Below are positions 1,259-29,636 of a stretch of 64,000 nt of DNA, one piece after another. Source of the stretch: an uncultured Candidatus Saccharibacteria bacterium. GTDB lineage: Bacteria; Patescibacteriota; Saccharimonadia; Saccharimonadales; CAIOMD01. How positions within the stretch are numbered: position 1 is the first letter of the stretch; every line of letters begins with the position of its first letter. The stretch spans positions 128,830 through 192,829 of the forward strand of contig OY970318.1 of NCBI GenBank assembly GCA_963716565.1. The letters are read 5' to 3'. The notes under the pieces were generated by a model. It did not search any database. It worked only from the letters and a program-made list of their open reading frames with translations, and was not told the DNA's origin. A program made the position numbers and the translations under genes.

Positions 1259-1609
1259 ATGAGCAAGTTTTCTACTATTGTCGTCGTGCTTGTCGTGCTT
1301 TTGATCCTGGCGCTTATCATCGTGCCAATCGTCAAGGCGACTCACAGGGCAGATGTCGTGATTACGATCGACAACCTGCAGCCAGTTGCTGAGGGCGATG
1401 ACGGCAACTACCTCATCTGGGCAACGCGCGAAGACGGCTCGCAAGAGGTGTTTGAGTGCACAGATAGCCTGTACTTGGGTAAGTTCAACTCTAGTGATGT
1501 CTACGGGCAGCTAGAAGTTGGCAGTACCTACAAGGTACAGGTAGCAGGTTTCCGTTGGCCGTTCAGGTCTTGGTACCGCAATATCATCAAGATCTACTCT
1601 GAAGAGTAA
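1259..1609 (+). CDS. hypothetical membrane-anchored protein (G/C-rich orphan)
   Basis: 116-aa ORF with an SD (agagggg) 6 nt upstream, an N-terminal TM helix and G/C-ending codons unlike its neighbours. A hairpin plus T-run follows at 1644-1669. Confidence 0.55.
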   Translation: MSKFSTIVVVLVVLLILALIIVPIVKATHRADVVITIDNLQPVAEGDDGNYLIWATREDGSQEVFECTDSLYLGKFNSSDVYGQLEVGSTYKVQVAGFRWPFRSWYRNIIKIYSEE

Positions 1610-1704
1610 CCGACAAAAGTCCATTCAATTTGAGTGGCTCGCCGACCGAGAACGGTCATTTTTCTTTTTACATGGTATTATTTATTTGAAGACAGGAGGG
1701 TGAT

Positions 1705-1923
1705 ATGAAGGAAAAAGTTAAGAGAGAGATGAAAATGGACATTAATTGTTGCACTGGCAAGCACAAAGATAAGGCTAGCTGTGGCGGAGCCTACTTTTTA
1801 GGCTTTTTAGGCGCCGTTATCTATTTTGTGCAGCAAATCGATGGTTTTTGGCCTGGTGTTTTAGCTTTTCTAAAAGCTATTGTTTGGCCAGTTTTTGTGG
1901 TTTACCACCTGTTAGGCCTCTAG
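1705..1923 (+). CDS. small membrane protein, hypothetical
   Basis: 72-aa ORF with a strong SD (aggaggg), a Cys-rich N-terminus and two hydrophobic helices. Confidence 0.5.
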   Translation: MKEKVKREMKMDINCCTGKHKDKASCGGAYFLGFLGAVIYFVQQIDGFWPGVLAFLKAIVWPVFVVYHLLGL

Positions 1924-2061
1924 CTTAACCAAATATCCAATATTTCTATACTCGGCTAAAATGCTCGAGTGCTATTGAATATTACCTACAAATATGATAT
2001 TATATGTGTGATACTGCCATCGTAACAAATAGCTCGATGAGCTAGGACGCAAGGAGTGGTA

Positions 2062-2367
2062 ATGGTGGCGTATGGAGATTTGCAGACCCAAATAGGGAAC
2101 TGCATCAAGGAGCACCGGTTCGCTGACTTGTGGGATATTTGTGCAAAGCACAGTATCTCGCAGGAAGAGGTCCGGGCTGCGGTTATAGCCTTGGAGGGCA
2201 ACCTGGATGCTGTGGCGTACTACGTCACAAAGAGGGCGCAAGACCAATGTAGCGAAAAGGCCGCCTTAGGGCTGGCCAGGGTCGAGCTCGAAAGCATCAA
2301 AGCCCGTTCGGGCAAAGACCGCCAAGACAAGGGCGACGCGGATCTTCTGATGACGCTCTTGGGCTGA
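2062..2367 (+). CDS. hypothetical protein (G/C-rich orphan)
   Basis: The ORF track gives 2056-2367. ATG 2062 sits 6 nt after SD aaggag. The promoter is TTGAAT-17-TATTAT at about 1974-2002. The ORF is followed by three abutting hairpins at 2398-2471. Confidence 0.5.
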   Translation: MVAYGDLQTQIGNCIKEHRFADLWDICAKHSISQEEVRAAVIALEGNLDAVAYYVTKRAQDQCSEKAALGLARVELESIKARSGKDRQDKGDADLLMTLLG

Positions 2368-2504
2368 CCCAAATGTTCTTGGATCGGCAAGCGTTTGCTG
2401 GGGAGTACATAAACCCCAGAGGCCAACTGTATAAGTTGGCCGCAGTTGCGGCGGGCGAGTGGGCTCGCCGCTATTTAATTTGTTTAAATTTAGTCTACAC
2501 ATAA

Positions 2505-2533
2505 TAGACAATAAGCATATTATCTGGTATAAT
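2505..2533 (+). promoter_or_regulatory. sigma70-type promoter with extended -10 (TAGACA-17-TGgTATAAT)
   Basis: The hexamers and 17-nt spacer were read directly. SD taggagg and GTG 2583 lie downstream. Confidence 0.55.
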
Positions 2534-2582
2534 ATACCTAATACACGTATTCGCCCTGGCAACTACACATTAGGAGGAAACA

Positions 2583-3023
2583 GTGGAGGAATCGTTGTAT
2601 AGCAAGTTGGTGGACGTAGTTCACGATGCTTTTGGGAAACAGCCACTACGTTCAACGGAGTGGCTACGGTTTCTTCAGCAGCATGGTGCGGGCATGTCGG
2701 ACTACTTCAACGCCTACTCGGTGTTAGAAGGTGCCGATGAGATTGCGCTCTACTTGGTGCTAATAGGTGCTGGCTGTTCTAGCGGCGCGGCTCTGGCCGT
2801 TGCACTGGATACTCACCTGTACGCCAAGCTGTACGCTGGCCTGGACGACAACGCCGCTCGGCGGGATAAGAAGTCCGCTAAGGCTTTCGAGCGATCGACA
2901 AGGGTGATCCTGTACGATGCCTTGGCAGCCAACAAGCGTGGCGAGTACGCCAAGCTGTCGGTGCAAGAGCGCCGTCAGTTTGTCACCGAGGTCCTGGCCG
3001 ACTGGGTATCTTCTCGCCAGTAA
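2583..3023 (+). CDS. hypothetical protein (G/C-rich orphan)
   Basis: 146-aa ORF with a GTG start after SD aggagg and strongly G/C-ending codons. No family was recognised. Confidence 0.55.
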   Translation: MEESLYSKLVDVVHDAFGKQPLRSTEWLRFLQQHGAGMSDYFNAYSVLEGADEIALYLVLIGAGCSSGAALAVALDTHLYAKLYAGLDDNAARRDKKSAKAFERSTRVILYDALAANKRGEYAKLSVQERRQFVTEVLADWVSSRQ

Positions 3024-3098
3024 AGGCATCAAGAAGTGCCCGATGCCCAATCTTGCATCACAGACATTTTGCCGGTTTAAGTCTTTAAAAAAACCGGT

Positions 3099-3150
3099 GT
3101 AGTCGTAGATTGTTTTATCTGCCTGACGAGCTCAAAAAGAGCGAAACTAC
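3099..3150 (+). ncRNA. hammerhead ribozyme, type III topology (cleavage predicted after C3104)
   Basis: Reads GUAGUC|GUAGAU-UGUUUU-AUCUGC-CUGACGA-GCUC-AAAAA-GAGC-GAA-ACUAC. The full core is present: CUGANGA, GAA, the A15.1-U16.1 pair and a GUC cleavage triplet. Stems I, II and III have 6, 4 and 5 bp. Confidence 0.85.
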
Positions 3151-3915
3151 CTACTTATGCGTCAAAATAAAGTTAACGGTATCAGAGTATTCTGTTTTTG
3201 CTTTAATTGGCTTTAGCGGCTTTTGGGCCTCTAAGCTAAATGTTAGGGCTGAATTTAAAGAATCTTGCTCGCTGTGTCTTTCTAGCCCCTTTAGCTCATC
3301 AATATTACTTTGTTTTTCTTTATAGCGTTTGATATTGTCAAAGCCCAGCGCTTTTACGGTTTCATCTAAGGCTTCAAAATCCCATAGGTATTTGTGGCCA
3401 AAACCAATGAAGCTGGTGTTTAAAAACTCCGAGCCTAACATTTTATGGCGTTTTTTGTAGATTGGCTTTTTTATATCCGGAACAATTCGCTGCTGGAGTT
3501 TTAAGAAACTTTCCAACACCCTTTTATCTTTATTCACATAGGCTTTACAAATTGCCTCTAAGTCTGGCATAGATATCCGTATTATGCCACCGGGCTTTAA
3601 TACCCTGTATATTTCGTGTAAGTGTTTTACGGTTTGTTCGTAGCTTAGGTGCTCTAAAAAATGTTCCGAAAAAGCGTAATCAATAGAGCTATTTTTAAAT
3701 GGCAACTTTTTTAGGGCGTTAAAATAAACATCACCAGTCCAGATATCTGCTGTTAGCCACCCCGGCTGCTTAACTGGCAGTTCGCCAGGGGCTAAGTGGA
3801 GTTTTCTGACAGCATTGCTGTTTAAATACTCTCTAATTTTAAAATATCTAACCAGATGCCCCTTTTTTAGTTGGTGCTTTATTCTGTTTGATCTATGTAG
3901 CCATTGCCCGGTCAT
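3151..3915 (-). CDS. class I SAM-dependent methyltransferase
   Basis: 254-aa ORF with a Methyltransf_11/23-like motif (LKPGGIIRISMPDLE) and the surrounding Rossmann pattern. Confidence 0.65.
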   Translation of the reverse strand: MTGQWLHRSNRIKHQLKKGHLVRYFKIREYLNSNAVRKLHLAPGELPVKQPGWLTADIWTGDVYFNALKKLPFKNSSIDYAFSEHFLEHLSYEQTVKHLHEIYRVLKPGGIIRISMPDLEAICKAYVNKDKRVLESFLKLQQRIVPDIKKPIYKKRHKMLGSEFLNTSFIGFGHKYLWDFEALDETVKALGFDNIKRYKEKQSNIDELKGLERHSEQDSLNSALTFSLEAQKPLKPIKAKTEYSDTVNFILTHK

Positions 3916-6046: not shown

Positions 6047-7096
6047 ATGAATAAAAATATGGCCGCTACTTTTGCAGAAATCACCAAGACACAAGAATCG
6101 CTTAAGCTCAAGTTTGCCAAACTAGAAGATAAGTCGGCAATTTTAAAAGATGCCGAATTTAGAGCTTTGCTTAATGGTATTGCCAAACAACCAACCGAGC
6201 AGCGGGCGGCCTATGGGCGAGCAGTTAATGAACTAAAACAAGAGATTTTAAGTTGGCTAAACCAGGCTGGCAGTAGCGTGACGCACCTAACGCCAATCGA
6301 CATCACTGCGCCGTTTGATGTAAATAGCAAACCAGCCGACAGGCCACGTTTGCTGGGTAGCGACCAAGGCAGTACCCATCCGTTAATGGCCGAGCTAGAT
6401 AATATTTTAGATATTTTTTACCGAATGGGCTTTGAGGCGGTAGAGTCGCGTCAAATTGACGATGATTACCATATGTTCGAAGCCTTAAACTTCCCAGCTG
6501 GCCACCCCGCCCGCGACGATTATGATAGCTTTACGACTACCGATGGCTTAATCGCCCCGGCTCATACCAGCACTATGCAAAACAGGGTGTTAAAAGCCAA
6601 CAAAAAGAACCTAGAAAACGGTGAAGCTATCGCCACAGTTATACCGGGCCGAGTTTTTAGAAACGAAGATTTAGATGCTCGCCACGAGCATACTTTTTAC
6701 CAAATCGAAGGCGTTTATGTAGGTAGGGGCGTTAATACTGGTCACTTAATTGCTACCTTAAAAACTTTCTTGCAAGAATATTACCAACAAGAACTAGATG
6801 TTCGCACTCAGCCATTCTATTTCCCATTCACCGAACCTAGTTTTGAGTTTGCCTTAAGTTGCCCGTTCTGTAAAAAGAAGGGCTGTAACATTTGTGGCCA
6901 AGAGGGCTGGATAGAACTTATTGGCTGTGGCTTAATTCACCCCAACGTTCTAAAAGAAGCCGGCATTGACCCCAAAGTTTATACCGGCTTTGCCTTTGGG
7001 CTAGGGATTGATCGCTTGGTAATGATGAAATATAACATAGAAGACATCCGCCATTTTGAAAGTGGTAAGCTAGAATTTTTGAGGCAATTCAAATGA
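6047..7096 (+). CDS. pheS: phenylalanine--tRNA ligase alpha subunit
   Basis: Class II aaRS motifs (FPAGHPARD, GRVFRNE, GFAFGLGIDRL). ATGA overlap with pheT. The start is ambiguous (6014, 6047 or 6059); a TTCAAC-17-TATAAT promoter ends at 6048. Confidence 0.9.
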   Translation: MNKNMAATFAEITKTQESLKLKFAKLEDKSAILKDAEFRALLNGIAKQPTEQRAAYGRAVNELKQEILSWLNQAGSSVTHLTPIDITAPFDVNSKPADRPRLLGSDQGSTHPLMAELDNILDIFYRMGFEAVESRQIDDDYHMFEALNFPAGHPARDDYDSFTTTDGLIAPAHTSTMQNRVLKANKKNLENGEAIATVIPGRVFRNEDLDARHEHTFYQIEGVYVGRGVNTGHLIATLKTFLQEYYQQELDVRTQPFYFPFTEPSFEFALSCPFCKKKGCNICGQEGWIELIGCGLIHPNVLKEAGIDPKVYTGFAFGLGIDRLVMMKYNIEDIRHFESGKLEFLRQFK

Positions 7097-10244: not shown

Positions 10245-10341
10245 GTGTCTGAAGCTCAGTATTGGCAGCGAGCAACCCAATCATATCCAATTAAAGGAGT
10301 GGAGGGGAAGGAGTTTGCGGGTTCAAGTCCCGCCAGACACA
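10245..10341 (+). tRNA. tRNA-like element or disrupted tRNA (97 nt) lacking a foldable anticodon arm
   Basis: Perfect 7-bp acceptor (GUGUCUG/CAGACAC), a D stem GCUC/GAGC and a T arm GCGGG-UUCAAGU-CCCGC. The 43-nt centre reads ACCCA-AUCAUAU followed by a purine-rich UAAAGGAGUGGAGGGGAAGGAGUUU, and I found no 5-bp stem with a 7-nt loop in it. Confidence 0.35.
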
Positions 10342-19943: not shown

Positions 19944-20036
19944 AATTTAAGTATAACCCCATTCTGTAGATTCTATCGCCTATCGTCCATTGTCCAACGT
20001 CTGATTATGTGTTAAAATAACAACCGAAGGCAAAGA

Positions 20037-20061
20037 CCCGCCATTTAAGCGGGCTATTTTT
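20037..20061 (+). promoter_or_regulatory. terminator-like hairpin plus U-run abutting the typA start codon (possible leader attenuator)
   Basis: CCCGC-CAUUUAA-GCGGG followed by CUAUUUUU, then ATG at 20062. The candidate promoter is TTGTCC-17-TAAAAT at 19990-20018. No SD is visible. Confidence 0.4.
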
Positions 20062-21885
20062 ATGATAGATACTACCCACATTCGAAACATTGCCATTATT
20101 GCGCACGTAGACCATGGTAAAACTACCATTGTTGATGCGCTTTTAAAGCAAAGCCACACTTTTAGAGCCAACCAGGCCGAAATGCAGGCCAATCTTATTT
20201 TAGACAGTGGCGACCAAGAACGAGAACGTGGCATTACTATTCGCGCCAAGCAAACGGCCATTAACTACAATGGTTACCATATTAATATTATCGATACTCC
20301 CGGCCACGCCGATTTTAGCGGTGAAGTGGAGCGGACTCTAAACATGGCTGATGGCTGTTTGCTGATTGTAGATGCCCAAGAAGGCCCTATGCCACAAACC
20401 AAATTCGTACTAAAAAAAGCTCTGCAAACCGGCCTAAAGCCCATCGTTATCATTAACAAAATAGATAAAAAAGACGCTCGTATTCATAAAGTAGAAGACG
20501 AAATCGCCGATTTATTTTTAGAACTTGCTAGCGACGAAAGCCAGTTGCATTACTCGGTATTTTACGCTGTTGGCCGTCAGGGCAAAGCTTGGGACACTAA
20601 GCCAGACGATATGGATTCTAAGGCTGATATGAGCGTTATTTTTGACGCTGTAATTGCCGAAATCCCTTGCCCCAGCGGCGAGCTAGATAAACCATTCCAA
20701 ATGTTAATTACGGCCCTAGCCTGGGACAGTTTTTTGGGTAAATACGCTATTGGCCGTATTGCTAGGGGCAGTTTAAAAAGTGGCCAACAATTAAAACTTA
20801 TTAAAAAAGACGGGCGAGTAGTTAATACCAAAGCCGATAAGATTTTTATTAATCAAGGTTTAGCCAAAGCCGAAGTTGGCGAAGCCACCACCGGCGACAT
20901 TATATCTGTTACGGGCATAGCCGATGCTCAAATTGGCGAAACCATTGCCGATTATGATAACCCTGAAGCCTTGCCGGTAATTTTGGTAGAAGAGCCAACC
21001 CTAAAGATCACGCTTTTACCCAATAGTTCGCCATTTAAGGGTCAGGAGGGTGAATTCACTACTTCGCGCCAGATAGATAACCGGCTTAAACAAGAACTAG
21101 AAACTAACGTTGGGTTGCGTGTTGAACCGGATGGAGTAGGCTTTTTGGTGAGTGGCCGTGGCGAATTGCACTTAAGCGTGCTAATAGAAGCTATGCGCCG
21201 TGAGGGATTTGAATTCGAAGTTGGTAAGCCACACGTTGTTTTAAAAGAAGTCGATGGTAAAACTTGCGAGCCAGTAGAAGAGCTAACCATAGAAGTGCCA
21301 GACGATTACGTGGGCACTGTTCAGCAACAGCTTGGAGCCCGTAGGGCAGAGTTTATTCGCCAAGATGCTACTGGCACGGGTATTGCTCGCTTAGAATATA
21401 AAATCACTACTCGTTCATTGCTTGGTTTGCGTAACATTTTGCTGACCGCTACAAGAGGCACAGTTAATATGTATAGCTTAATGCTTGGCTACCAGCCAGT
21501 GGGCTCTAATTTAGCTAGCTCGCGCAACGGTGCCCTAATTGCCTGGGAAACCGGTGTTGCCACGGCTTACGCTCTGCAAACGGCCGAACAAAGAGGTATT
21601 TGTTTTATTGCTCCTGGCGTAAAAGTCTACGCCGGTCAAGTAGTTGGCTTAAATAGCCGAGCCGACGATATGGACATTAACGTGGTAAAAGAAAAACACC
21701 TAACTAATATGCGCTCTTCAAGCAGCGATGGTACCGTGCAGCTAACTCCGCCAGTAACGTTTAGCCTAGAGCAATCCCTAGATTTTATAGAAGATGACGA
21801 GTATTTAGAAGTTACGCCTAAATCTTTACGTATTCGTAAAAAGATTTTAGACCCCAACATGCGCAAGCGTGCCCCGAAGCAATAA
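20062..21885 (+). CDS. typA: translational GTPase TypA/BipA
   Basis: G-domain motifs [17 protein letters not shown] and NKID, plus EF-G-like domains and a BipA-type C-terminus. Confidence 0.95.
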
Positions 21886-21955
21886 AAGTATTTAAAAAAT
21901 GCACTTCCTGCCTTGTCGCTAACGGTTTAATGGCTTTTGTGCCATAATAGATTTT

Positions 21956-22477
21956 ATGCTTACACCAAAAACTATTTTGCTAATTATCAATATTATAGGT
22001 GGCATCGCTGTTGTTGGCAGCTATATCTGGGTGCTAACTAAAAGTGGCAAGGGAGCCACAGCTTTTTGGGGTGGTACACCGAAGAATGTAATATCAATCT
22101 ATACGTTATCGATGATTTTATCAGCACTGTCTTATTTTGCCTTTATCTTCTTTACGCTGTTTAAGCTTGATTTATCGGCTGTAAATCTGGCAGTTTTATA
22201 CAGTGCTTTTGTAGGTATATTAGCAATTTCGGCTTTTTGGATGCCATTAACAAATATGTATTTGGCGCATGCTTCCACCTTACTGTGGATCTGCGTAAGA
22301 TTGGTATTAGTTTTCGTTGGATTGGCCTCAATTTTGTTGGCTGGCTTCTTAATAAGCCTACATTCCCAGCAATCAGGAGCCGCTTATTGGGCGGCGCTTG
22401 CTGGCGCTTGCTACTTTGCTTTCCATACGGCAGTATTAGATGCCATATTTTGGCCGGTATTATTTAGGTCTGTTTAG
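21956..22477 (+). CDS. hypothetical polytopic membrane protein
   Basis: 173 aa with about 5 TM helices. No family was recognised. Confidence 0.5.
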   Translation: MLTPKTILLIINIIGGIAVVGSYIWVLTKSGKGATAFWGGTPKNVISIYTLSMILSALSYFAFIFFTLFKLDLSAVNLAVLYSAFVGILAISAFWMPLTNMYLAHASTLLWICVRLVLVFVGLASILLAGFLISLHSQQSGAAYWAALAGACYFAFHTAVLDAIFWPVLFRSV

Positions 22478-22565
22478 TACGCACTCCAAGGGGTAGACAA
22501 AAGGGCTACAATGTGTAATAATAGCTTTGTTCATTGTTGGCAAAAAATGCACCCAAGGGGGTCTC

Positions 22566-22814
22566 GTGAACGACTTAATAGAGGTCAGTCACATCCTGTT
22601 CGCCATAGCTCTGATCGCGCTTGGCCTCGTCGTTTTTCTTAGTTTTGCCTGGCTTGTTGGCAAGTTCATCTCCAAGATATCGGGCGATGAGGAGAATGAC
22701 AAGAGAGAGCGCAGGGTCGCAGCCAAGGTGATCGTCGCCTGTGCGCTAGTGTTTGCGGTGTCTCTTGGCTTGGGCTGGCTACTGTACTACCTAGGTGGTG
22801 GTACGGCAACATAG
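22566..22814 (+). CDS. hypothetical two-TM membrane protein (G/C-rich orphan)
   Basis: The in-frame GTG at 22566 follows SD aaggggg; the ORF track starts at 22527. Codons are G/C-ending. Confidence 0.45.
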   Translation: MNDLIEVSHILFAIALIALGLVVFLSFAWLVGKFISKISGDEENDKRERRVAAKVIVACALVFAVSLGLGWLLYYLGGGTAT

Positions 22815-22873
22815 CTGGCAGTGCCACTGGGCACCACCAAACTTCTGAGCTTTGGGCGACCAATGAACAAAAG

Positions 22874-22936
22874 GGCGGGAGATTGGGTGAATAACTCAAT
22901 CTCCCGCCTGTAGCACACCCCAAAAGGGTGTTTTTT
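22874..22936. terminator. bidirectional terminator pair between convergent genes
   Basis: A 12-bp hairpin GGCGGGAGAUUG/CAAUCUCCCGCC at 22874-22908 is T-rich on the minus-strand side. A hairpin ACACCC/GGGUGU followed by U6 at 22915-22936 serves the plus strand. Confidence 0.75.
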
Positions 22937-22938
22937 AT

Positions 22939-23739
22939 TTAGTCATGCTTTACATAAACTTGGGTTGGGCTAGTACCGGCAAAATGTAACTGGCCATTGC
23001 TAAAGGTAGCACTGCCGGCATTCAATCCGTATGTACCATTCATAGCGTTAACCACACCGCTATTTAAGACTTTACCGGCAATATCTAGCGGGGCATTAAA
23101 GCGCCCGATTTGAACTTGTTCAACTTGCATATTTAAAACGTTATTAACTACCTCGGCAGCAGCTCGTACGTAGATTGGCGGGCTACCTGCTAAACGTTTG
23201 CCCCAGCCTAGGGCTTTATCGATATCGGACTGGCTATAGCCAACTCCGCCTATAAAATTAACAAAGCTAGAGATTTGATCCATTTTAATGTTGCCACTAA
23301 TTTCTACGGTACCATCGCCAAAACGAACTTGGGTATTAGTAATTGGCATTTGCGACCAGCCAACCGAGTTAATGGTGGCGGTAATTTCTTCTTGAGTTAA
23401 GTTAACATCCATATATTTCGGGTTAGCAAAAATTGTCTTTTTAGCAGGATTGATAGCGCTAACTGGTGCGGTGGCGAAGTCTAAAAATTGGCCACCAGTC
23501 TTGGTTTGGTAACTAACGTAATCGGCCTCACTGTAACGTACGCCTAGGTCGCGGGCTTTGGTGGCGCCCATTAGGCTAGATAAACCAGGTATAAAACCCA
23601 GATACCCTAAGACGATCACTGGGGCCACAATAAATACTAAAACTAGAACGCTGACTACCCATGGCCACTTACGTCGTTTTTTGGGTTCTGGCTTGATGTT
23701 GGTCTCTTCCACCTCTGTCGGTTTGCTGTTTTCGTCCAT
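22939..23739 (-). CDS. hypothetical membrane-anchored extracytoplasmic protein
   Basis: 266 aa with a charged N-terminus, one TM helix and a large C-terminal domain. No family was recognised. Confidence 0.55.
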   Translation of the reverse strand: MDENSKPTEVEETNIKPEPKKRRKWPWVVSVLVLVFIVAPVIVLGYLGFIPGLSSLMGATKARDLGVRYSEADYVSYQTKTGGQFLDFATAPVSAINPAKKTIFANPKYMDVNLTQEEITATINSVGWSQMPITNTQVRFGDGTVEISGNIKMDQISSFVNFIGGVGYSQSDIDKALGWGKRLAGSPPIYVRAAAEVVNNVLNMQVEQVQIGRFNAPLDIAGKVLNSGVVNAMNGTYGLNAGSATFSNGQLHFAGTSPTQVYVKHD

Positions 23740-23798
23740 GGCTCCCTCACTGTTATTTAGCTGTATATTAGTATATATCTTTGGTTTAGTTATGAGAA

Positions 23799-23867
23799 TT
23801 CTATGGGCTTAGTAAAGAGTTCGGCGTTGTGCCTAAGCTGACGAGGCCAAAAGGCTTAAAAAACAGA
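23799..23867 (+). repeat. degenerate hammerhead copy, a direct repeat of the 26015-26073 ribozyme
   Basis: Positions 23827-23867 (ttgtgcctaagCTGACGAggccaaaaggctTAAaaaacaga) align with 26031-26071. G12 is changed to U, the nucleotide at the H17 position is G, the 5' strand of stem III has diverged, and loop I carries an insertion. Confidence 0.6.
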
Positions 23868-23923
23868 AAAAACCAAATTGCTATTGCTTGCGTTTTTAAA
23901 TTATTGGCTAATAATACAGCTTA

Positions 23924-24238
23924 ATGGAAACACTCGAACAAGAGAAAACTAACCAGTATCGTCGAGCAAGCGCCTTTTGTATGCTTGGCTGTGACGCTTG
24001 CGATGCAATGCTAGGCAAAGAATGTAAGCCAACACTGAGTCTGGATGGTAGTGGTATTTACTGCCACAGGCAAAGCAAAGAGGTCACATTCACGGCCCTA
24101 GATGCTCATCAACAAGTTTTTGGTAAGCCAGCTAGATTGCTAGAAGAAAAAGCCCAACTTATAAGTAGGATATTCGGCCACCTAGAAATGCCCAAAGAAC
24201 CCGAAGCGCCAAAAGATTCGACAGAGCAAGTTTTATAA
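23924..24238 (+). CDS. hypothetical Cys-rich protein
   Basis: 104 aa containing CMLGCDACDAMLGKEC...YCH. Preceded by the TTGCTT promoter motif at 23884, with an AT-rich -10 about 8-10 nt before the ATG. Confidence 0.5.
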   Translation: METLEQEKTNQYRRASAFCMLGCDACDAMLGKECKPTLSLDGSGIYCHRQSKEVTFTALDAHQQVFGKPARLLEEKAQLISRIFGHLEMPKEPEAPKDSTEQVL

Positions 24239-24309
24239 CAACACTATTTAGTATTTTTATCTCTAAGACGTACATCAATAAAACATTAAAGAGGTTATAA
24301 TGGCCGTAG

Positions 24310-24945
24310 ATGACAGGCCAAACCAAATCAACAATAAAAATCGTAGAAGAAATCTTTAACAGTATTTTGCATGGGCTAGGGGCCATCGCCGGCATTGTTG
24401 GCTTGGTTCTGGGCATAGTTACAATCACTGCCGACTTGTCTTATAAAGTTGGCTTTATCATTTATTGTGCCACTCTAATCTTATTGATGTTAATGTCTTG
24501 CTTGTACCATGCCTTAAAATTCACCAAAGCCACAAAAGTTTTTAGGGCGTTAGATCATAGCAGCATCTTTTTGCTAATAGCCGGCAGTTTTACGCCGTTT
24601 ATTATTCAGCTATATTCTGGCTGGGTGCAAATAGTGTTATTAAGTGTTACTTGGGTGATTGCTACTGCTGGCGTAAGCCTAACCCCAACTGTAATTTTGC
24701 CCAAAGACCTCAAAAAAACTAACGCTATATTTTACATTGCCTTTGGCTGGCTGGCTCTAATCTTTATTCCAAAAATTCATACCTTTTCGGCGACGGTGTT
24801 GTGGTTATTAGTAGCCGGCGGGGCTTTATATACGGTTGGCGTAATTTTATATGCTAGTAAAAAGCCATTTATGCATCTTGGTTGGCACGCATTTGTTATC
24901 GCTGCCGCAACCTTGCACTTCTTTGCCATTATAAAGCTCCCCTAG
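24310..24945 (+). CDS. hemolysin III / PAQR family membrane protein
   Basis: 211 aa, 7 TM helices, with conserved HLGAI, YHAL, DHSSIFLLIAGSFTPF and HAFV motifs of the HlyIII family. Confidence 0.85.
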   Translation: MTGQTKSTIKIVEEIFNSILHGLGAIAGIVGLVLGIVTITADLSYKVGFIIYCATLILLMLMSCLYHALKFTKATKVFRALDHSSIFLLIAGSFTPFIIQLYSGWVQIVLLSVTWVIATAGVSLTPTVILPKDLKKTNAIFYIAFGWLALIFIPKIHTFSATVLWLLVAGGALYTVGVILYASKKPFMHLGWHAFVIAAATLHFFAIIKLP

Positions 24946-24981
24946 CATAGACAGAAACATAATAAAGTGGTAATATATGCG

Positions 24982-25015
24982 CACTTTCGTTGAGATTACT
25001 CCGAAGGTGTTTTTT
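24982..25015 (+). terminator. rho-independent terminator after the hlyIII-family gene (or first hairpin of the downstream leader)
   Basis: CACUUUCG-12 nt-CGAAGGUG hairpin followed by U6. Confidence 0.7.
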
Positions 25016-25146
25016 GACAAGTAGGAAACGCAAAATGAGAGGCAAGGGCTTGGTTGCAAGCTTTTGCTCCTCATTTTGCGCTTCTCATAGGGAGAGGCCA
25101 ATAAGCTAAGGCTTGGGCGCTCGCCCAGTGAGGAGAAGGGGAAAAT

Positions 25147-25689
25147 ATGAATCTGCTATTGGACGTCAAAGGTGAGATGGTGGTTTTCGGCAAAAGCCTA
25201 GGCGACACCTTTCCTGAATGGGTGAAGGACGCCAAGGCGCTGGCCTATACCCAAGGGCATCAGTACGCGATGTTCGTGTATGAGGGCATCATAGTACGGG
25301 CGAGCCTGGGCTCAAGTTCCGAGCTCTTACTGCGCGATGTGCGGCGAGCGCGGTATGGTCATCTTGGTAACGCGGTGGGGCCGAAGTGCTGTGAGCATCT
25401 CACCGACGAGGACCTGCAGGAGGACGAGCTGGCCAGGGCTGCGTACGACGTCAACCATATCTTCACCTTGCTCATGGGCCTCATCAGTGAAGAGGTCCGT
25501 GCGGAATTGGATCGGGAGAACGTCGTGGCGTCCGGTATCAAAGGTGAACGGATCAAGCAGACGACTCGCCTAGTCCTTTCTATGAAGGACTTGGCCCGGC
25601 TCAGCATCCGGCTCGAAAGAGCGCAAGCAGGCGCCCAAGCCCAAGAGGTGGCTAAAGCCGAACCGGTCGCCGAAACGGTGGCGTCTTGA
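25147..25689 (+). CDS. hypothetical protein (G/C-rich orphan)
   Basis: 180 aa with SD gaggag and strongly G/C-ending codons. No family was recognised. Confidence 0.55.
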   Translation: MNLLLDVKGEMVVFGKSLGDTFPEWVKDAKALAYTQGHQYAMFVYEGIIVRASLGSSSELLLRDVRRARYGHLGNAVGPKCCEHLTDEDLQEDELARAAYDVNHIFTLLMGLISEEVRAELDRENVVASGIKGERIKQTTRLVLSMKDLARLSIRLERAQAGAQAQEVAKAEPVAETVAS

Positions 25690-25943
25690 ACGCCAAGCCA
25701 AAGTCGGCGTTGGTAACGGCCGGCTACAACGCGTTCTACGTACGTGCTGGTGTTCGGCTCGAAGACGCTCTGCGTGAAGCGGCGTCTGTGTCGGCCCAAG
25801 TGTGCAATCTGGTGACTGTTGTGTTCAACAATCGACCGCTTGCGATCGATACGACGACTGACGTCGAGAAGCTTCTAATAGCCGAAGGCCTAGACGGCAA
25901 TGCCGTTTCTTCGGACGTTTCTCGACGAAACGCTCACGCCTGA
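25686..25943 (+). CDS. hypothetical protein (G/C-rich orphan)
   Basis: 85 aa. The TTG start overlaps the upstream stop (TTGA), suggesting translational coupling. An 11-bp hairpin follows at about 25965-25994. Confidence 0.45.
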   Translation: MNAKPKSALVTAGYNAFYVRAGVRLEDALREAASVSAQVCNLVTVVFNNRPLAIDTTTDVEKLLIAEGLDGNAVSSDVSRRNAHA

Positions 25944-26014
25944 CCCCTCCCGGTTTTCAAAAGGGCGTAGTGGCCACCAACCACTACGCCCTATGCCGGT
26001 CTCCTACTTGTCAA

Positions 26015-26073
26015 TATCTGTTTACTTAAGTGTGCGCTTAAGCTGACGAGGTCAAAAGGCCGAAAAACAGATA
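26015..26073 (+). ncRNA. hammerhead ribozyme, type III topology (cleavage predicted after A26024)
   Basis: Reads UAUCUGUUUA|CUUAAG-UGUGCG-CUUAAG-CUGACGA-GGUC-AAAA-GGCC-GAA-AAACAGAUA. The full core is present. Stems I, II and III have 6, 4 and 9 bp, and all three covary with the 3099 copy. Confidence 0.85.
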
Positions 26074-26113
26074 GCAGTTTATTAAGTAGCAAAAACAATC
26101 TATTATTAATGTT

Positions 26114-26752
26114 ATGAGCATTATTTGTCCCACAATCCTAGCCAAAGATGAAGCCGATTTTAAAATTCAAATAGATAAAGTGGCTGGCTTTGCCAAGCGT
26201 ATTCAGATTGATTTAGAAGATGGTGTATTTGCTCCTAGCCAAAGTATTCCACTGGCCAAAGTTTGGTGGCCCAATGGTATCGAAGCCGACATTCACGTAA
26301 TGTACCAAAACCCCCAAGACTATCTAGAAACACTCATAAAACTTAAACCCAGCATGGTAATTGTGCACGCCGAAAGCACCTGTGATATTCCCAAACTGGC
26401 TGCCGATTTAAGAGTCGCCGGAATTAAAACGGGCCTAGCAATTTTGCAGCCAACTACTATTGATTCGGTAAAGTATATATTCCCGCACGTTCAGCATCTA
26501 TTAATCTTTAGTGGTGATTTGGGCCATTTCGGCGGCGTAGTCGACATGAGTTTAACCAGTAAAATCACCGAAGCTAAAACCGCTCACCAATATCTAGAGA
26601 TCGGTTGGGATGGTGGTATCACCGCCGAAAACGCCAAAGAGCTGGCCGAAGCCGGCGTAGATGTTCTAAATGTAGGCGGTGCCATCCAGAATGCTGATAA
26701 TCCACAAGAGGCTTATGCTAAAATAGTATCAAGTCTAAGTGGGCAAAAATAA
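26114..26752 (+). CDS. rpe: ribulose-phosphate 3-epimerase
   Basis: 212-aa TIM-barrel Rpe pattern (ICPTILA...IQIDLEDG...VIVHAES...GWDGGI). Confidence 0.8.
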   Translation: MSIICPTILAKDEADFKIQIDKVAGFAKRIQIDLEDGVFAPSQSIPLAKVWWPNGIEADIHVMYQNPQDYLETLIKLKPSMVIVHAESTCDIPKLAADLRVAGIKTGLAILQPTTIDSVKYIFPHVQHLLIFSGDLGHFGGVVDMSLTSKITEAKTAHQYLEIGWDGGITAENAKELAEAGVDVLNVGGAIQNADNPQEAYAKIVSSLSGQK

Positions 26753-26754
26753 TA

Positions 26755-27609
26755 TTGAAACAATATTCGCTTGAAGAATTAGAACAAATGGCCTGCGTCG
26801 TTCGGCGCGATGTTATTGATATGCTTGAACGTGCTGGCAGCGGCCACAGTGCCGGCTCGCTTGGTATGGCCGACATTTTTACAGCCCTATACTTTAGCGT
26901 GCTAAGGCACGATCCTAAAAAGCCCAACTGGGATGAGCGTGACATTTTAGTTATGAGCAATGGCCACCTAGCACCGGTGCGCTACGCCGCTATGGCCGAA
27001 GCCGGTTATTTTGATAAGAAAGAACTAGAAACTTTGCGCAAGTTAGGTTCTCGTTTACAAGGTCACCCCGAACGCACCAAATTGCCCGGGCTAGAAACTA
27101 CCAGTGGCCCCTTGGGCTCTGGCTTAAGCCAAGCTATTGGCATGGCCTTAGCGCTACGCCTAAACAAGCAGCCGCATCGCTGGATTTATGTAACTATGGG
27201 TGATGGCGAGCTGGATGAAGGCAATGTTTGGGAAGCGGCTATGCTGGCGCCTAAGTATAAGTTAAGCAACATTATTGGCATTATCGATCGTAACAACATT
27301 CAAATTGATGGCCCTACCGAAGAGGTTATGCCGCTAGAAGATTTGAAGGCCAAGTGGGAAGCTTTTGGCTGGCACGTAATAGAAGTTGATGGCAATAACA
27401 TAGAATCATTCATTGATGCTTGCGCCATGGCCAAAGCCATCACCGAAAAGCCAGTTATGATAATTGCCCACACCGTACCTGGCAAGGGCGTGGATTTTAT
27501 GGAATACGATTTTAAATGGCACGGCGTAGCACCCAATCACGAACAAGCCATGGAAGCTATAAAAGAGATACGAACTTTGCAGGGTAAAATAAGGGATGAA
27601 CATGAATAG
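26755..27609 (+). CDS. transketolase, N-terminal subunit
   Basis: ThDP-binding motifs GSGHSAGSLGMADI and GDGELDEGNVWEA. Split-type transketolase. Confidence 0.9.
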   Translation: MKQYSLEELEQMACVVRRDVIDMLERAGSGHSAGSLGMADIFTALYFSVLRHDPKKPNWDERDILVMSNGHLAPVRYAAMAEAGYFDKKELETLRKLGSRLQGHPERTKLPGLETTSGPLGSGLSQAIGMALALRLNKQPHRWIYVTMGDGELDEGNVWEAAMLAPKYKLSNIIGIIDRNNIQIDGPTEEVMPLEDLKAKWEAFGWHVIEVDGNNIESFIDACAMAKAITEKPVMIIAHTVPGKGVDFMEYDFKWHGVAPNHEQAMEAIKEIRTLQGKIRDEHE

Positions 27610-27622
27610 CGCTCATACATTA

Positions 27623-27693
27623 CTTTTTGTTGTGCGCTCTTTCGCCGAGAAGCCACGAACTTCTCGGGAAGCGCTAGCAAACCCAACAAAAAG
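27623..27693 (+). other. 71-nt extended stem-loop in the spacer between the two transketolase subunit genes
   Basis: Nested helices: a 10-bp helix CUUUUUGUUG/CAACAAAAAG, a 5-bp helix GCGCU/AGCGC and an 8-bp helix CCGAGAAG/CUUCUCGG with a 7-nt loop. The sequence is confirmed by the antisense ORF translation. Confidence 0.6.
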
Positions 27694-27733
27694 CAACATA
27701 TTCGCTGGTTATTATGGAAGGAATAATAATTAA

Positions 27734-28723
27734 ATGGGCAACCCAGAATTACATTTAACCGATTATTTATCCGACAAGGTCGAAATGGTGCCAATCCGCA
27801 AAGGTTTTGGTACGGGCCTTAAAAAAGCTGGCGAACTTAACGAAGACGTAGTTGGTTTATGCGCCGACTTAACCGAAAGCGTGCAGTTCCATGTTTTTAA
27901 AGAAGCCTTCCCAGATAGATTCTTCCAAGTTGGTATTGCCGAACAAAACTTAGTAACGGTTGGTTCTGGTTTGGCCGCCATGGGCAAAATCCCTTTTGTG
28001 GGCAGCTATGCCGCTTTTAGCCCAGGGCGCAACTGGGAGCAAATCCGCACTACCATTTGTTTGAATAATCAGCCCGTTAAAATTATTGGCGGTCATGCCG
28101 GTATTTACACTGGCGAAGACGGCGCCACTCACCAAATGCTAGAAGACATAACGTTAATGCGAGTATTGCCCAACATGGTAGTAATAGTGCCTGGCGATAG
28201 TGTGGAGGCCGAAAAGGCCACGCTAGCCATAGCGGCCCATAAACAGCCTTGCTACTTACGATTAGCCCGAGTAGCTTCACCGGTTTTTACGACCGAAAAA
28301 ACACCTTTTGAAATCGGCAAAGCCTACGTTTTAGAAAAGGGCCAAGATATCACTATTATTGCCTGTGGCACCATGACGCACCCCGCTCTAGTGGCAGCCG
28401 ATAAACTATTTAAAGAAGGTATTGATGCCGAAGTTATACATTGCCCAACCATTAAACCGCTAGATGCGGTTACCATTTTGCAAAGTGCCGGCAAAACCAA
28501 AGCTGTAATAACCGTAGAAGAAGGCCAAATTGCTGGTGGTTTAGGTGGAGCTGTGGCCGAACTATTAGGCGAAGAATTGCCAACCCCATTAAAGCGTGTG
28601 GGCATTCGCGATAGATTTGGCGAAAGCGGCCATCCGGATGAATTATTAGAACACCTAGGCCTAACCGCTAAACATATTGTTAGGGCTGCTCATCAATTAT
28701 TAACTTCGATAGGTAGGGAATAA
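27734..28723 (+). CDS. transketolase, C-terminal subunit
   Basis: Pyrimidine-binding and C-terminal domains (FQVGIAEQNLVTVGSGLA, GEDGATHQMLEDI). Confidence 0.9.
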   Translation: MGNPELHLTDYLSDKVEMVPIRKGFGTGLKKAGELNEDVVGLCADLTESVQFHVFKEAFPDRFFQVGIAEQNLVTVGSGLAAMGKIPFVGSYAAFSPGRNWEQIRTTICLNNQPVKIIGGHAGIYTGEDGATHQMLEDITLMRVLPNMVVIVPGDSVEAEKATLAIAAHKQPCYLRLARVASPVFTTEKTPFEIGKAYVLEKGQDITIIACGTMTHPALVAADKLFKEGIDAEVIHCPTIKPLDAVTILQSAGKTKAVITVEEGQIAGGLGGAVAELLGEELPTPLKRVGIRDRFGESGHPDELLEHLGLTAKHIVRAAHQLLTSIGRE

Positions 28724-28724
28724 T

Positions 28725-29636
28725 ATGGCTCGCAATTTAAAACAAATTCGTGAAGGTTGTGCCAAAGCTCGCGAAGCCATGGCTCGGTCTCGCCAAGAAC
28801 ACTTTGCTATCGGGGCTTTTAATATCGATAACCAAGAAACTTTAATTGCCGTGGCTAAAGCCGCTCAAAAGTTGCAGGCGCCGGTAATGGTAGAAGTTAG
28901 CGATACCGAAGTTAAAGCTATGGGCTTTGATAACATCCTAGACATGGTAGATAACTACAAAAGAGATTTTGACATAGAAATGTACATAAACATGGATCAC
29001 TGCCCAACAGTTGAAATGGCCAAAGAAGCCATCGATACTGGTTATGAATTCGTACACATTGATGTGTCTCAAGCTCAGCATGATGCTCCAGATTCCGAAA
29101 TTATCGAAGCCACCAAGCAAATTGTTGAATATGCCAAAACCACCGGCGCCCAGGTAGAAGGCGAGCTGCATTATTTTAGGGGTGGTTCCAACGTATTTAA
29201 AGAAGCCTTTAACTACGAAGAAATCAAAAAAACTTTTAGCACGCCCGAAGAGGCCAAGATGTTTGTTACTGCTACTGGCATAGATACTTACGCGGCGGCT
29301 ATTGGCAACTTGCACGGCTACTATCCGGTACCTAAAATTTTAGATTTAGATTTACTAGAGCAAATTCGCAAAGTTATAGATTGTAACATTAGCTTGCATG
29401 GCGGCAGCGACACGCCGGCCCATTATTTTGAAGGTGCCGTACACATTGGTGTGAGCAAGGTAAATGTTAATAGCGATTTGCGTAAAGCCTTTCGTGAGAC
29501 TCTAGAAAAAGTGCTACGCGAAAACCCCGATGAATACGCCATAGTTAAGCTAATGCCCGAAGTTTACGGGGCGGTGCGGGCGGTGGTGGAGAGCAAAATC
29601 CAGTGGTTTAACGCCGTGGGTAAGGCGAAGCCTTAG
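28725..29636 (+). CDS. fba: class II fructose-bisphosphate aldolase
   Basis: 303 aa, FBA class II pattern (FNIDNQETL, MDHCP, LHGGSDTP, VNVNSDLR). Confidence 0.85.
   Translation: MARNLKQIREGCAKAREAMARSRQEHFAIGAFNIDNQETLIAVAKAAQKLQAPVMVEVSDTEVKAMGFDNILDMVDNYKRDFDIEMYINMDHCPTVEMAKEAIDTGYEFVHIDVSQAQHDAPDSEIIEATKQIVEYAKTTGAQVEGELHYFRGGSNVFKEAFNYEEIKKTFSTPEEAKMFVTATGIDTYAAAIGNLHGYYPVPKILDLDLLEQIRKVIDCNISLHGGSDTPAHYFEGAVHIGVSKVNVNSDLRKAFRETLEKVLRENPDEYAIVKLMPEVYGAVRAVVESKIQWFNAVGKAKP

Follow-up and report, generated by a model that had tools for sequence, protein, structure and literature searches.

The window analysed here, a stretch of 64,000 nt of contig OY970318.1 with about 42% GC and the appearance of a Saccharibacteria-like chromosome, carries two same-strand copies of a type III hammerhead ribozyme between typA and rpe, one on either side of a gene of the hemolysin-III family (HlyIII). 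We think it fairly probable that two independent accessory inserts flank the resident HlyIII gene, each with a hammerhead copy, and that the right copy would be the functional 3' boundary of an acquired expression cassette. An earlier note on this DNA had described the four genes between the copies (the Cys-rich orphan ORF104, HlyIII and two GC-rich orphans, here ORF180 and ORF85) as one block enclosed by direct repeats. The genes and the repeats were found as described, but the four genes are not a unit: relatives keep HlyIII at the same place without a hammerhead, and the DNA specific to the window consists of two separate inserts, a left one at 23778-24291 with 40-45% GC and a right one at 24946-26083 with 55-62% GC. 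The features of the locus are collected in Table 1.

Table 1. Features of the locus, in window coordinates; R1 is the family-specific hammerhead model described in the text, whose E-values are roughly calibrated.
Feature	Position	Strand	Basis
Decayed hammerhead copy (left)	23808..23866	+	R1 hit 23824-23866, 18.4 bits, E 0.0079, third best in window
ORF104, Cys-rich orphan (motif LGCxxC...C...YC)	23924..24238	+	ORF list; in left insert, host-like GC
Hemolysin-III family gene (HlyIII)	24310..24945	+	Pfam PF03006, E 2e-35
Promoter-like site TAGACA-N17-TAATAT, extended -10 TG	24948..24976	+	Consensus scan
Leader hairpin 1 with conserved TTGAG (ACUUUCGUUGAG...CCGAAGGU)	24983..25008	+	Minimum free energy (MFE) fold; 4-locus leader alignment
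IR-L TTGACAAGTAGGA, 5' arm of long-range helix	25014..25026	+	Inverted repeat, folds, covariation
Structured leader: long hairpin 25029-25081, overlapping RAGATH-10-like element 25065-25140	25029..25140	+	Fold z-score -7.2; Rfam
ORF180, first cargo gene	25147..25689	+	Orphan
ORF85, second cargo gene; start overlaps ORF180 stop (TTGA)	25686..25943	+	ORF list; GC 56-62%
GC-rich hairpin after cargo (GGGCGTAGTGG/CCACTACGCCC), no T-run	25963..25991	+	Direct reading, fold
IR-R TCCTACTTGTCAA, 3' arm of closing helix, ending one base ahead of stem III	26002..26014	+	Inverted repeat, folds, covariation
Type III hammerhead with intact core (right)	26015..26073	+	R1 hit 26017-26071, 59.4 bits, E 4.5e-15; core rules by hand

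HlyIII Is a Resident Gene between Two Variable Sites

In BLAST alignments of the window with the contigs L001 to L004, the homology stopped at 23777, returned for HlyIII (24292-24944) and returned again at 26084 with rpe. Orthologues of HlyIII with 76-91% amino acid identity were located upstream of rpe in five contigs (L002, L003, L004, L248 and L249), and HlyIII relatives carry the names Saccharibacteria or Saccharimonadales. In L002 and L004, the gene also adjoins a 266-aa minus-strand gene, the backbone order in L002 being this gene, HlyIII, a spacer, rpe, tkt, tkt and fba, and in L003 and L249 it is adjoined by other genes. None of these five relatives has a hammerhead on either side of HlyIII or contains ORF104, ORF180 or ORF85, and an Rfam search of the syntenic relatives returned no match. 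Judged by this synteny, HlyIII is a resident backbone gene and not cargo. Because it is in place in relatives without the hammerhead or the extra ORFs, the two hammerhead copies sit in two separate variable intergenic sites. The comparison of the typA-to-rpe interval, which the earlier note had proposed as a check, showed no four-gene block and no hammerhead in the five relatives, and the model of a single block fails. The proposal that cassettes had been added next to a resident ribozyme stood in its first half, since cassettes were added at this locus, but the ribozyme was not resident and would have arrived as the 3' end of a cassette. A scan of the genome collection based on rpe yielded one distant relative with 58% identity. 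The genes flanking the locus are typA, genes for membrane proteins, HlyIII, rpe and genes for transketolase and aldolase, and no integrase or phage structural gene was found among the ORFs at 20000-29000, a subset of which was searched against Pfam and PHROGs.

The spacers flanking HlyIII differ in every relative. The left one is empty in L002, and the right one consists of 660 bp of tandem repeats, with short arrays of CGGTATA, TTTCAATT, CTATCT and CTAA units in place of genes at 6640-7000. Other small ORFs occupy the spacers of L004 and L248, two minus-strand genes those of L003, and thyX that of L249. An element of about 40 nt, GGTCCGAACATTTTGGAGTTTCTTATTTAAAAGTGTCAATCC (L248, 95-135 and 1170-1212; L004, 2550-2600), precedes a Cys-rich ORF of 89 or 90 aa, which lies left of HlyIII in L248 and right of it in L004. 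The second, diverged copy of this element follows HlyIII in L248, and therefore HlyIII is flanked there by different direct repeats. The similarity of ORF104 to these small Cys-rich ORFs is weak (E 9.7 by BLASTP, E 0.021 by hhalign). Neither Pfam nor PHROGs gave a match for ORF104, nor did a tblastn search of the phage collection, and exact-sequence look-ups returned no record for P0001 or ORF104.

The Right Insert Ends in an Intact Hammerhead of an Abundant Family

Because Rfam missed the right hammerhead, we built a family-specific covariance model (R1) from 100 family members of other contigs, leaving out the sequences of the window, and ran it with filters off over the entire window, for a total of 128 kb of sequence. 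The term intact, as used here for the right copy, refers to the core rules checked by hand and to the family model, not to Rfam. At its gathering thresholds, Rfam reported tRNAs only in the whole window, and other members of the compact family likewise remain below the Rfam threshold with 24-43 bits.

The search pattern for the family, CTGANGAGNNCAAAAN{0,1}GNNCGAAA, gave at least 120 matches in IMG/VR and at least 120 in the metagenome collection. Among the matches listed, to which all family counts in this paragraph refer, 222 of 257 fold as type III hammerheads with a stem I of 7 bp and a 4-nt loop. The stem I consensus is N6-UGWGYR-N6, stem II consists of 4 bp with an AAAA loop, stem III of 3-8 bp, and the cleavage dinucleotide is UC in 167, UA in 39 and UU in 25 cases (n = 231). 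According to crude ORF calling, the context is intergenic in 213 of 255 cases, with the same orientation as the upstream gene in 160 of 193 and as the downstream gene in 132 of 182, and with median gaps of 35 nt past the upstream stop codon and 27.5 nt ahead of the next start codon. The three helices of the family covary, with 98.6% of cells paired in the true register vs. 32-44% with the partner slid; the sequences were pre-filtered for pairing, so the value of 98.6% is partly built in, but the covariation is not. Members of this compact type III family are very common in the DNA of phages and metagenomes.

The right copy belongs to this family and has its stereotyped shape. Stem I, CUUAAGU-GUGC-GCUUAAG, has 7 bp and a 4-nt loop, stem II, GGUC-AAAA-GGCC, has 4 bp and an AAAA loop, and stem III, UAUCUGUU/AACAGAUA, has 8 bp in addition to the A15.1-U16.1 pair (A26065 with U26023). 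Stems I and II are capped by loops, and stem III is open. The core contains CUGACGA at 26043-49 and GAA at 26062-64, followed by A, which gives C3 U4 G5 A6 N7 G8 A9, G12 A13 A14, A15.1-U16.1 and H17, and the core-adjacent pairs 1.1-2.1 (C-G) and 10.1-11.1 (G-C) contain no mispair. With U16.1 at 26023 and A17 at 26024, cleavage is predicted between 26024 and 26025.

We also considered a type I reading of the right hammerhead via the downstream sequence CAGUUUAUUAAG, which was rejected: stems I and III pair poorly in it, and the Rfam model Hammerhead_HH9, the sole hammerhead match in a search with 131 nt around the right copy, scores only 14.1 bits. This weak type I alignment arises because the sequence CAGTTTATTAAG just 3' of the ribozyme (26079-26090, plus strand) repeats the substrate strand CTGTTTACTTAAG (26019-26031). 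As homology to the relatives resumes at 26084, CAGTTTATTAAG may be a marker of the insertion junction.

The Right Insert Is Built as a Cassette That Recurs with Other Cargo

From 24946 to 26073, the right insert forms a self-contained cassette of 1.13 kb, with 55-62% GC vs. about 42% around it, in which a promoter, a structured leader, two orphan ORFs, a hairpin and the hammerhead follow each other. Horizontal acquisition is suggested by this composition, and the high GC content within the low-GC genome of an epibiont suggests transfer from a high-GC donor. A terminator scan called no intrinsic terminator at the cassette 3' end, the GC-rich hairpin included.

The same architecture occurs with different cargo in at least 10 metagenomic contigs. 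Over about 200 nt upstream of the ORFs, the leader is homologous throughout in L194, L246 and L247, and an nhmmer search with a leader profile recovered it from L156, L165, L178, L154 and L234, in each case with a same-strand hammerhead 0.5-1.1 kb further downstream. The shared order is a strong sigma-70-type promoter (TTGACx-N17-TATAAT at the equivalent position in the siblings), a UUGAG hairpin, the IR-L arm TTGACAAGNA..., a long hairpin, a RAGATH-10-like fold ending in a Shine-Dalgarno sequence, the cargo, the IR-R arm ...TNCTTGTCA and the hammerhead. In the 4-locus alignment, the TTGAG of hairpin 1 and its flanks are invariant, and the hairpin is also present in L154, L156, L165, L178 and L217. 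The cargo consists of mutually unrelated proteins of 112-317 aa, and there is no conservation among the cassettes downstream of the ribozyme. Again among the matches listed, an IR-R-like motif stands at the fixed position in 12 of 257 hits; 11 of these 12 have TTGACAAG 0.5-1.2 kb upstream, as opposed to 19 of the 245 others, and apart from the window's own copy all IR-R-bearing hits are on metagenome contigs and none is in IMG/VR. Where the flanks are long enough, they contain type IV pilus genes, a gene for a conjugative coupling protein, tuf/rpsJ, or tRNA or tmRNA genes. We infer from this gene content, which is typical of Patescibacteria, that the cassettes reside on cellular chromosomes of such organisms.

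In two siblings, L234 (558-629) and L178 (10044-10137), the cassette follows a tRNA gene and the 3' end of a tmRNA gene, respectively, and starts within about 15-200 nt of it; no integrase was noted on the short flanks. Genes for tRNA and tmRNA are classic integration sites of mobile elements.

A search of the leader against Rfam gave a match to RAGATH-10 (RF03147) at 25065-25140 with 29.0 bits and an E-value of 0.011, and matches at the same place in L194 (24.8 bits) and L156 (29.1 bits). In all three loci, a same-strand hammerhead follows the element at a distance of 0.5-1.1 kb, and it is from such neighbourhoods that RAGATH-10 is known. Its outer helix includes the Shine-Dalgarno sequence of ORF180. 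The leader hairpin at 25029-25081 contains 12 pairs with compensatory changes according to RNAalifold with five cassettes, and its 3' strand reads CCUCAUUUUG in the window and CUCAUCUUG in the other cassettes. Because this strand also serves as the 5' side of the RAGATH-10 outer helix, opposite the strand with the ribosome-binding site, the two folds are mutually exclusive. We infer that the leader may act as a translational switch between them.

The second conserved structure connects the ends of the transcript. IR-L is 94% complementary to 25999-26014 in an inverted-repeat search, and when the 1040-nt RNA from the predicted start to the predicted cleavage site is folded, the MFE structure and the centroid structure are both closed by the helix of IR-L and IR-R. 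Across eight cassettes, this helix covaries: 77.9% of cells are paired vs. 34-44% with the partner slid, 11 pairs show changes on both sides vs. 1-5, and the observed values were not attained in any shuffle. In all eight, 28-31 nt separate the IR-R anchor from the ribozyme core.

Conserved ends around variable cargo could also mark an element that moves as DNA, such as a miniature inverted-repeat transposable element (MITE), an integron-like cassette or a segment exchanged at conserved flanks, with the hammerhead as incidental cargo. In favour of this, the IR core ACAAG/CTTG is invariant in sequence and not just in pairing, the cassettes are found at unrelated chromosomal sites, two of them adjoining a tRNA or tmRNA gene, and the insert of the window is missing from the relatives. 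However, conserved parts extend beyond both repeats, with the promoter and hairpin 1 on the outer side of IR-L and the ribozyme on that of IR-R, which makes the repeats internal rather than terminal, and the boundaries given by synteny are 24946 and 26083 and not the inverted repeats, unlike those of MITEs or insertion sequences. Moreover, no transposase or integrase is present in or beside the cassette of the window, no target-site duplication was noted, and the fixed spacing between IR-R and the core points to a joint function in RNA. On balance we consider an element of this kind with an incidental hammerhead rather unlikely, although movement as DNA and a function of the ends as RNA are not mutually exclusive.

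The Left Copy Has Decayed but Is Related to the Right One

The R1 model recovered the left copy on the same strand as the third-best match, and the next best match had 10.3 bits and an E-value of 2.1. In a repeat search, 23828-23862 and 26033-26067 were 86% identical over 35 ungapped nt at a distance of 2205 bp, in agreement with the approximately 85% that the earlier note had estimated by eye for 23827-23867 and 26031-26071. With gaps allowed, the match spans about 42 columns, and the longest exact shared run is only 13 nt. When the left copy was compared pairwise with 251 family members, the right copy was the top match with a score of 26, followed by others with 22, 20 and 19 (mean 11.9, standard deviation 3.2). 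Because these other family members score so close behind, much of the 86% identity is family-level conservation of core and loops. Within this sample, the two copies are each other's nearest relatives by sequence, and the relatedness, for which a proper alignment statistic had been asked, stands.

The left copy retains the core CTGACGA (23838-44) and stem II (GGCC-AAAA-GGCT), and the defects named in the earlier note were confirmed by direct reading. The CGAAA has become TTAAA, which places U at G12 and, as an additional change, U at C11.1 (23856-23857). Positions 16.1 and 17 are both G (23806-23807), whereby U16.1 is also lost and the U16.1/H17 cleavage site is gone. The 5' strand of stem III, CTATG, pairs at 3 of 5 positions with the retained 3' strand AACAG. 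Of stem I, CTTAG (23808-12) and CTAAG (23833-37) remain with 20 nt between the strands instead of the 4-6 nt of the family, which corresponds to an insertion of about 15 nt in loop I. With G12, U16.1, H17 and stem III affected, this copy is a relic and not a member of the hammerhead class; by the rules for the hammerhead core, it is catalytically inactive.

One might ask whether the left copy resembles a hammerhead by chance, leaving only one at the locus. Its E-value of 0.0079 is modest, and half of the shared bases belong to the family-invariant core. Nevertheless, the match ranks third in 128 kb and lies 8 bits over the noise, and a 24-nt pattern with up to three mismatches was found three times vs. 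0.07 expected per window. Beyond the core, both copies also share N7 = C, the 3' strand of stem I, the UGUGC loop motif, stem II and the stem III strand AACAG. A chance resemblance is very improbable in view of these points, and the left copy is, as far as its alignment goes, a true but degenerate relative of the right hammerhead.

The same polarity of the two repeats and the position of the right copy as nearest to the left one among the 251 members would be expected if a resident ribozyme had been duplicated locally or used for recombination, with the direct repeats created by, or mobilising, the block. RecA requires a minimal homology that exceeds the 13-nt shared run, and the copies are too short and divergent to serve as recombination repeats. 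Furthermore, unrelated members score nearly as high against the left copy, its stem I is shorter by one base pair, with both strands changed, which is more in line with independent members of the family than with a recent copy, the sequence flanking the ribozyme is not duplicated, and the relatives contain no ribozyme that could have been resident. We therefore see little room for such a local duplication. A similarity of 23789-23805 to the start of rpe was noted as well and judged to be due to chance.

The other suggestion of the earlier note, that the four genes once formed a single RNA unit between two active hammerheads, which was processed out or circularised before the left one decayed, has a real precedent in ribozyme-bounded genes. 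In 14 fetched contigs, two or three same-strand hammerheads, usually non-identical, are located 0.4-1.4 kb apart and enclose an ORF of 90-331 aa, and a comparable arrangement in prophages was described by Perreault et al. 2011 (PMC3088659). The mutual best match of the two copies would also fit. This general idea stood up well, since such enclosed genes recur in the family; its application to the four genes did not, as HlyIII is resident in five relatives without hammerheads and the inserts differ in GC content. In addition, the GC-rich part is a complete unit that has a promoter and a leader of its own and is found at other loci with just one hammerhead, at the 3' end, no plus-strand promoter-like site was found upstream of the left copy by the consensus scan, and the spacing of 2.2 kb is larger than that of any pair in the family sample. 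We regard a former four-gene RNA unit as improbable, and a present-day ribozyme-bounded RNA of 2.1 kb is excluded because the left copy lacks G12 and the cleavage site. For the left copy, the best reading is a dead remnant of a related hammerhead that belonged to another hammerhead-bearing insert and stayed behind in the neighbouring variable site.

The Cargo Genes and Their Association with Tad4

ORF180 consists of an N-terminal domain of about 95 aa with a beta-beta-alpha-beta-beta-alpha order, followed by two long helices. A word-indexed search of 5.8 billion proteins found no relative, and a full HMMER scan of 1.84 billion representatives gave one weak match, P0122 (E 5e-4), whose locus L005 contains no hammerhead. 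A weak tblastn match led to L194, a contig that had been retrieved only via its hammerhead and that codes for a 116-aa ORF with the N-terminal domain of ORF180 between the RAGATH-10-like element and the hammerhead. A profile search extended the set to four relatives, with P0124 and P0125 among the additions. In P0124, the ORF180-type domain is fused to the Pfam domain Tad4 (83.6 bits), and P0125 is immediately preceded by a separate Tad4 ORF (in L247, 55 bits); L246, which carries the fusion, has 60% GC. The AlphaFold (AF2) model of ORF180 has a pLDDT of 73, and its N-terminal domain weakly resembles small uncharacterised phage proteins (best E 2e-3); the fold search gave no match in the PDB. 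Taking the Tad4 association and this model together, we guess by association that the cargo probably codes for an accessory or anti-defence protein of the phage type.

A Working Model of the Cassette and the Points against It

In the model we favour, the cassette (24946-26073) would be transcribed from its own sigma-70-type promoter, and the hammerhead would cut after A26024 to leave an mRNA with a defined 3' end that carries a 2',3'-cyclic phosphate, uncoupled from the downstream rpe operon. IR-L would then pair with IR-R, closing the 5' untranslated region (UTR) and the 3' end into a panhandle that should protect the mRNA, and the leader of about 170 nt would switch between the long hairpin and the RAGATH-10-like fold that sequesters the ribosome-binding site, with the consequence that translation is probably regulated. 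More tentatively, the cassette could represent an undescribed class of exchangeable Saccharibacteria-like (Patescibacteria) expression units with conserved promoter-leader and hammerhead ends, swappable small phage or anti-defence cargo and a panhandle mRNA freed by the ribozyme.

Several observations weigh against this model. Self-cleavage of the right hammerhead is predicted from sequence rules, its cleavage triplet UUA has the less common UA site (39 of the 231 family members among the matches listed), and the Rfam model Hammerhead_3 (RF00008, gathering score 48.5 bits) did not report it even at E-values up to 10 in searches with 2.9 kb and 131 nt. The three RAGATH-10 matches are all below the gathering score of 41.2, which leaves the leader outside RF03147 proper. 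The covariation of the closing helix was observed with eight cassettes, all of which were found via the ribozyme itself; the long-range helix could act in single-stranded DNA instead of RNA, and the sequence-conserved IR core would also suit a protein-binding or recombination site. Neither the ORF list nor the Pfam search contained a transposase or integrase in or beside the cassette of the window, and no recombinase is present that would move it. The left relic has no IR-R, leader or cargo upstream, because the resident minus-strand gene starts 85 nt away. It may once have stood in the 5' UTR of ORF104 instead of ending a lost cassette, and a context between a minus- and a plus-strand gene, as found there, is shared by 16 of 164 family members among the matches listed. 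Finally, neither ORF180 nor ORF85 matches a Pfam family at E ≤0.1, Tad4 included, and no PHROGs family matches ORF85. Because ORF180 itself lacks a Tad4 domain, the anti-defence reading amounts to guilt by association with two of its four relatives.

Further Hammerheads and an Unusual tRNA Gene

A third hammerhead at 3097-3152 on the plus strand of the window was detected by the core pattern and scored 46.4 bits (E 3.5e-11) with R1 and 36.5 bits, less than the gathering score, with Hammerhead_3 of Rfam. It is of type III, apparently intact, has a GUC site and lies downstream of a high-GC orphan ORF (2583-3023) and a hairpin. It closes an island of four small orphan ORFs (1259-3023); by eye, a promoter-like site was recognised for each of the ORFs at 2056-2367 and 2583-3023, and the gene after the hammerhead is on the opposite strand. 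Neither a RAGATH-10-like leader nor an IR pair accompanies it.

Immediately 5' of stem III, many family members on phage contigs (e.g., L008, L010, L012 and L014) have a pyrimidine-rich CUCC/CCUC tract that resembles an anti-Shine-Dalgarno sequence. The contigs L173 (1176 nt) and L244 (1993 nt) each harbour two hammerheads of 100% identity at distances of 1116 and 1181 nt, with an identical downstream flank in L244. These may be tandem or circular units of about 1.1-1.2 kb, i.e., viroid-like or small circular elements, or assembly products thereof. Independently of the hammerheads, one of four clustered tRNA genes of the window (10245-10341, plus strand; 34.1 bits) is 97 nt long and contains a 37-nt insertion in the region of the anticodon arm according to the Rfam alignment. 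It could be intron-bearing or otherwise unusual.

Comparison with Known Systems

Clustered hammerheads flanking genes in prophages and phages were described by Perreault et al. 2011, who proposed that long phage transcripts are processed into gene-length mRNAs and detected no spliced or circular product (PMC3088659). Because that paper describes the arrangement, the general idea of ribozyme-bounded genes was already established. The locus described here shares with these clusters the ribozyme class, the intergenic position, the orientation matching the neighbouring genes and copies that bracket variable single genes or short blocks. It differs in having one dead copy and only one intact core, in enclosing a resident chromosomal gene and in lacking an integrase, a phage gene or other prophage context nearby. 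The host is Saccharibacteria-like with a genome of about 0.8 Mb, and the active copy is part of a cassette that has a promoter, a leader and a 5'-3' closing helix of its own, none of which appears in the 2011 description.

RAGATH-10 is listed in Rfam (RF03147) as a motif of unknown function from the neighbourhoods of hammerhead and twister ribozymes. Here, too, a hammerhead-associated locus has a structured element immediately ahead of a small ORF, and in three independent cassettes the model aligns with the outer helix (CUCAUCUUG...GAUGAGGAGAAAG) as well as with the inner hairpins. In contrast to the Rfam motif, the leader of the window has about twice the length of the model and adds an upstream hairpin, the IR-L arm and the competing long hairpin.

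Ribozyme insulators such as RiboJ are engineered elements that are placed in a 5' position and fix the end of an RNA. Like these, the ribozyme proposed here would decouple a gene unit from flanking transcription; unlike them, it occurs naturally, at the 3' end, where a long-range helix links it to the 5' UTR. Type III hammerheads in units of about 1 kb are also known from retrozymes and viroid-like circular RNAs, and Obelisks have a similar size of about 1.1 kb. The cassette resembles these in its ribozyme type and unit length, but it has a single active ribozyme, the dead left copy being 2.2 kb away, and consists of chromosomal DNA with a promoter and proteins without related counterparts. 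An Obelisk or viroid-like origin of the 1-kb cassette was rejected on these grounds. For the cassette RNA to become circular, a 5'-OH end would be required.

Tad4 (Pfam PF25186) is a Type I Thoeris inhibitor of the phage anti-defence type (mentioned in bioRxiv 10.1101/2025.06.06.658234). The link to it consists of the two of four ORF180 relatives that are fused to or preceded by Tad4 within the same type of leader-cargo(-hammerhead) cassette, while ORF180 and ORF85 themselves do not match PF25186. A Thoeris system was not found either, no search aimed at one having been made.

The searchable literature contains no report of a cassette composed of promoter, leader, cargo, IR and hammerhead, none of a covarying helix between a 5' UTR and a ribozyme-proximal 3' end, nothing that links hammerheads with Saccharibacteria and no mention of RAGATH-10. 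The ribozyme class and its bracketing of genes are already known, and the cassette architecture appears to be the new detail.

To our knowledge, hammerheads of bacteria and phages have been catalogued by the thousands since 2011 without any biological role being established, and we know of no function for nearly all RAGATH motifs. As a correction, the present analysis shows that the four-gene block is not a unit and that the decayed copy is a relic. In a positive sense, this locus and its at least 10 siblings unite a RAGATH-10-like leader, a covarying long-range helix and a compact type III hammerhead around variable small genes, and some of these cassettes carry a known anti-defence domain. 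The hypothesis we offer is that these gene cassettes are portable and owe a defined, insulated 3' end to the ribozyme. If true, this would be the first concrete joint function for RAGATH-10 and this abundant hammerhead class, and the locus would be a natural analogue of the ribozyme-insulated gene cassettes of synthetic biology, placed in Saccharibacteria-like epibionts, in whose tiny genomes foreign high-GC DNA is conspicuous.

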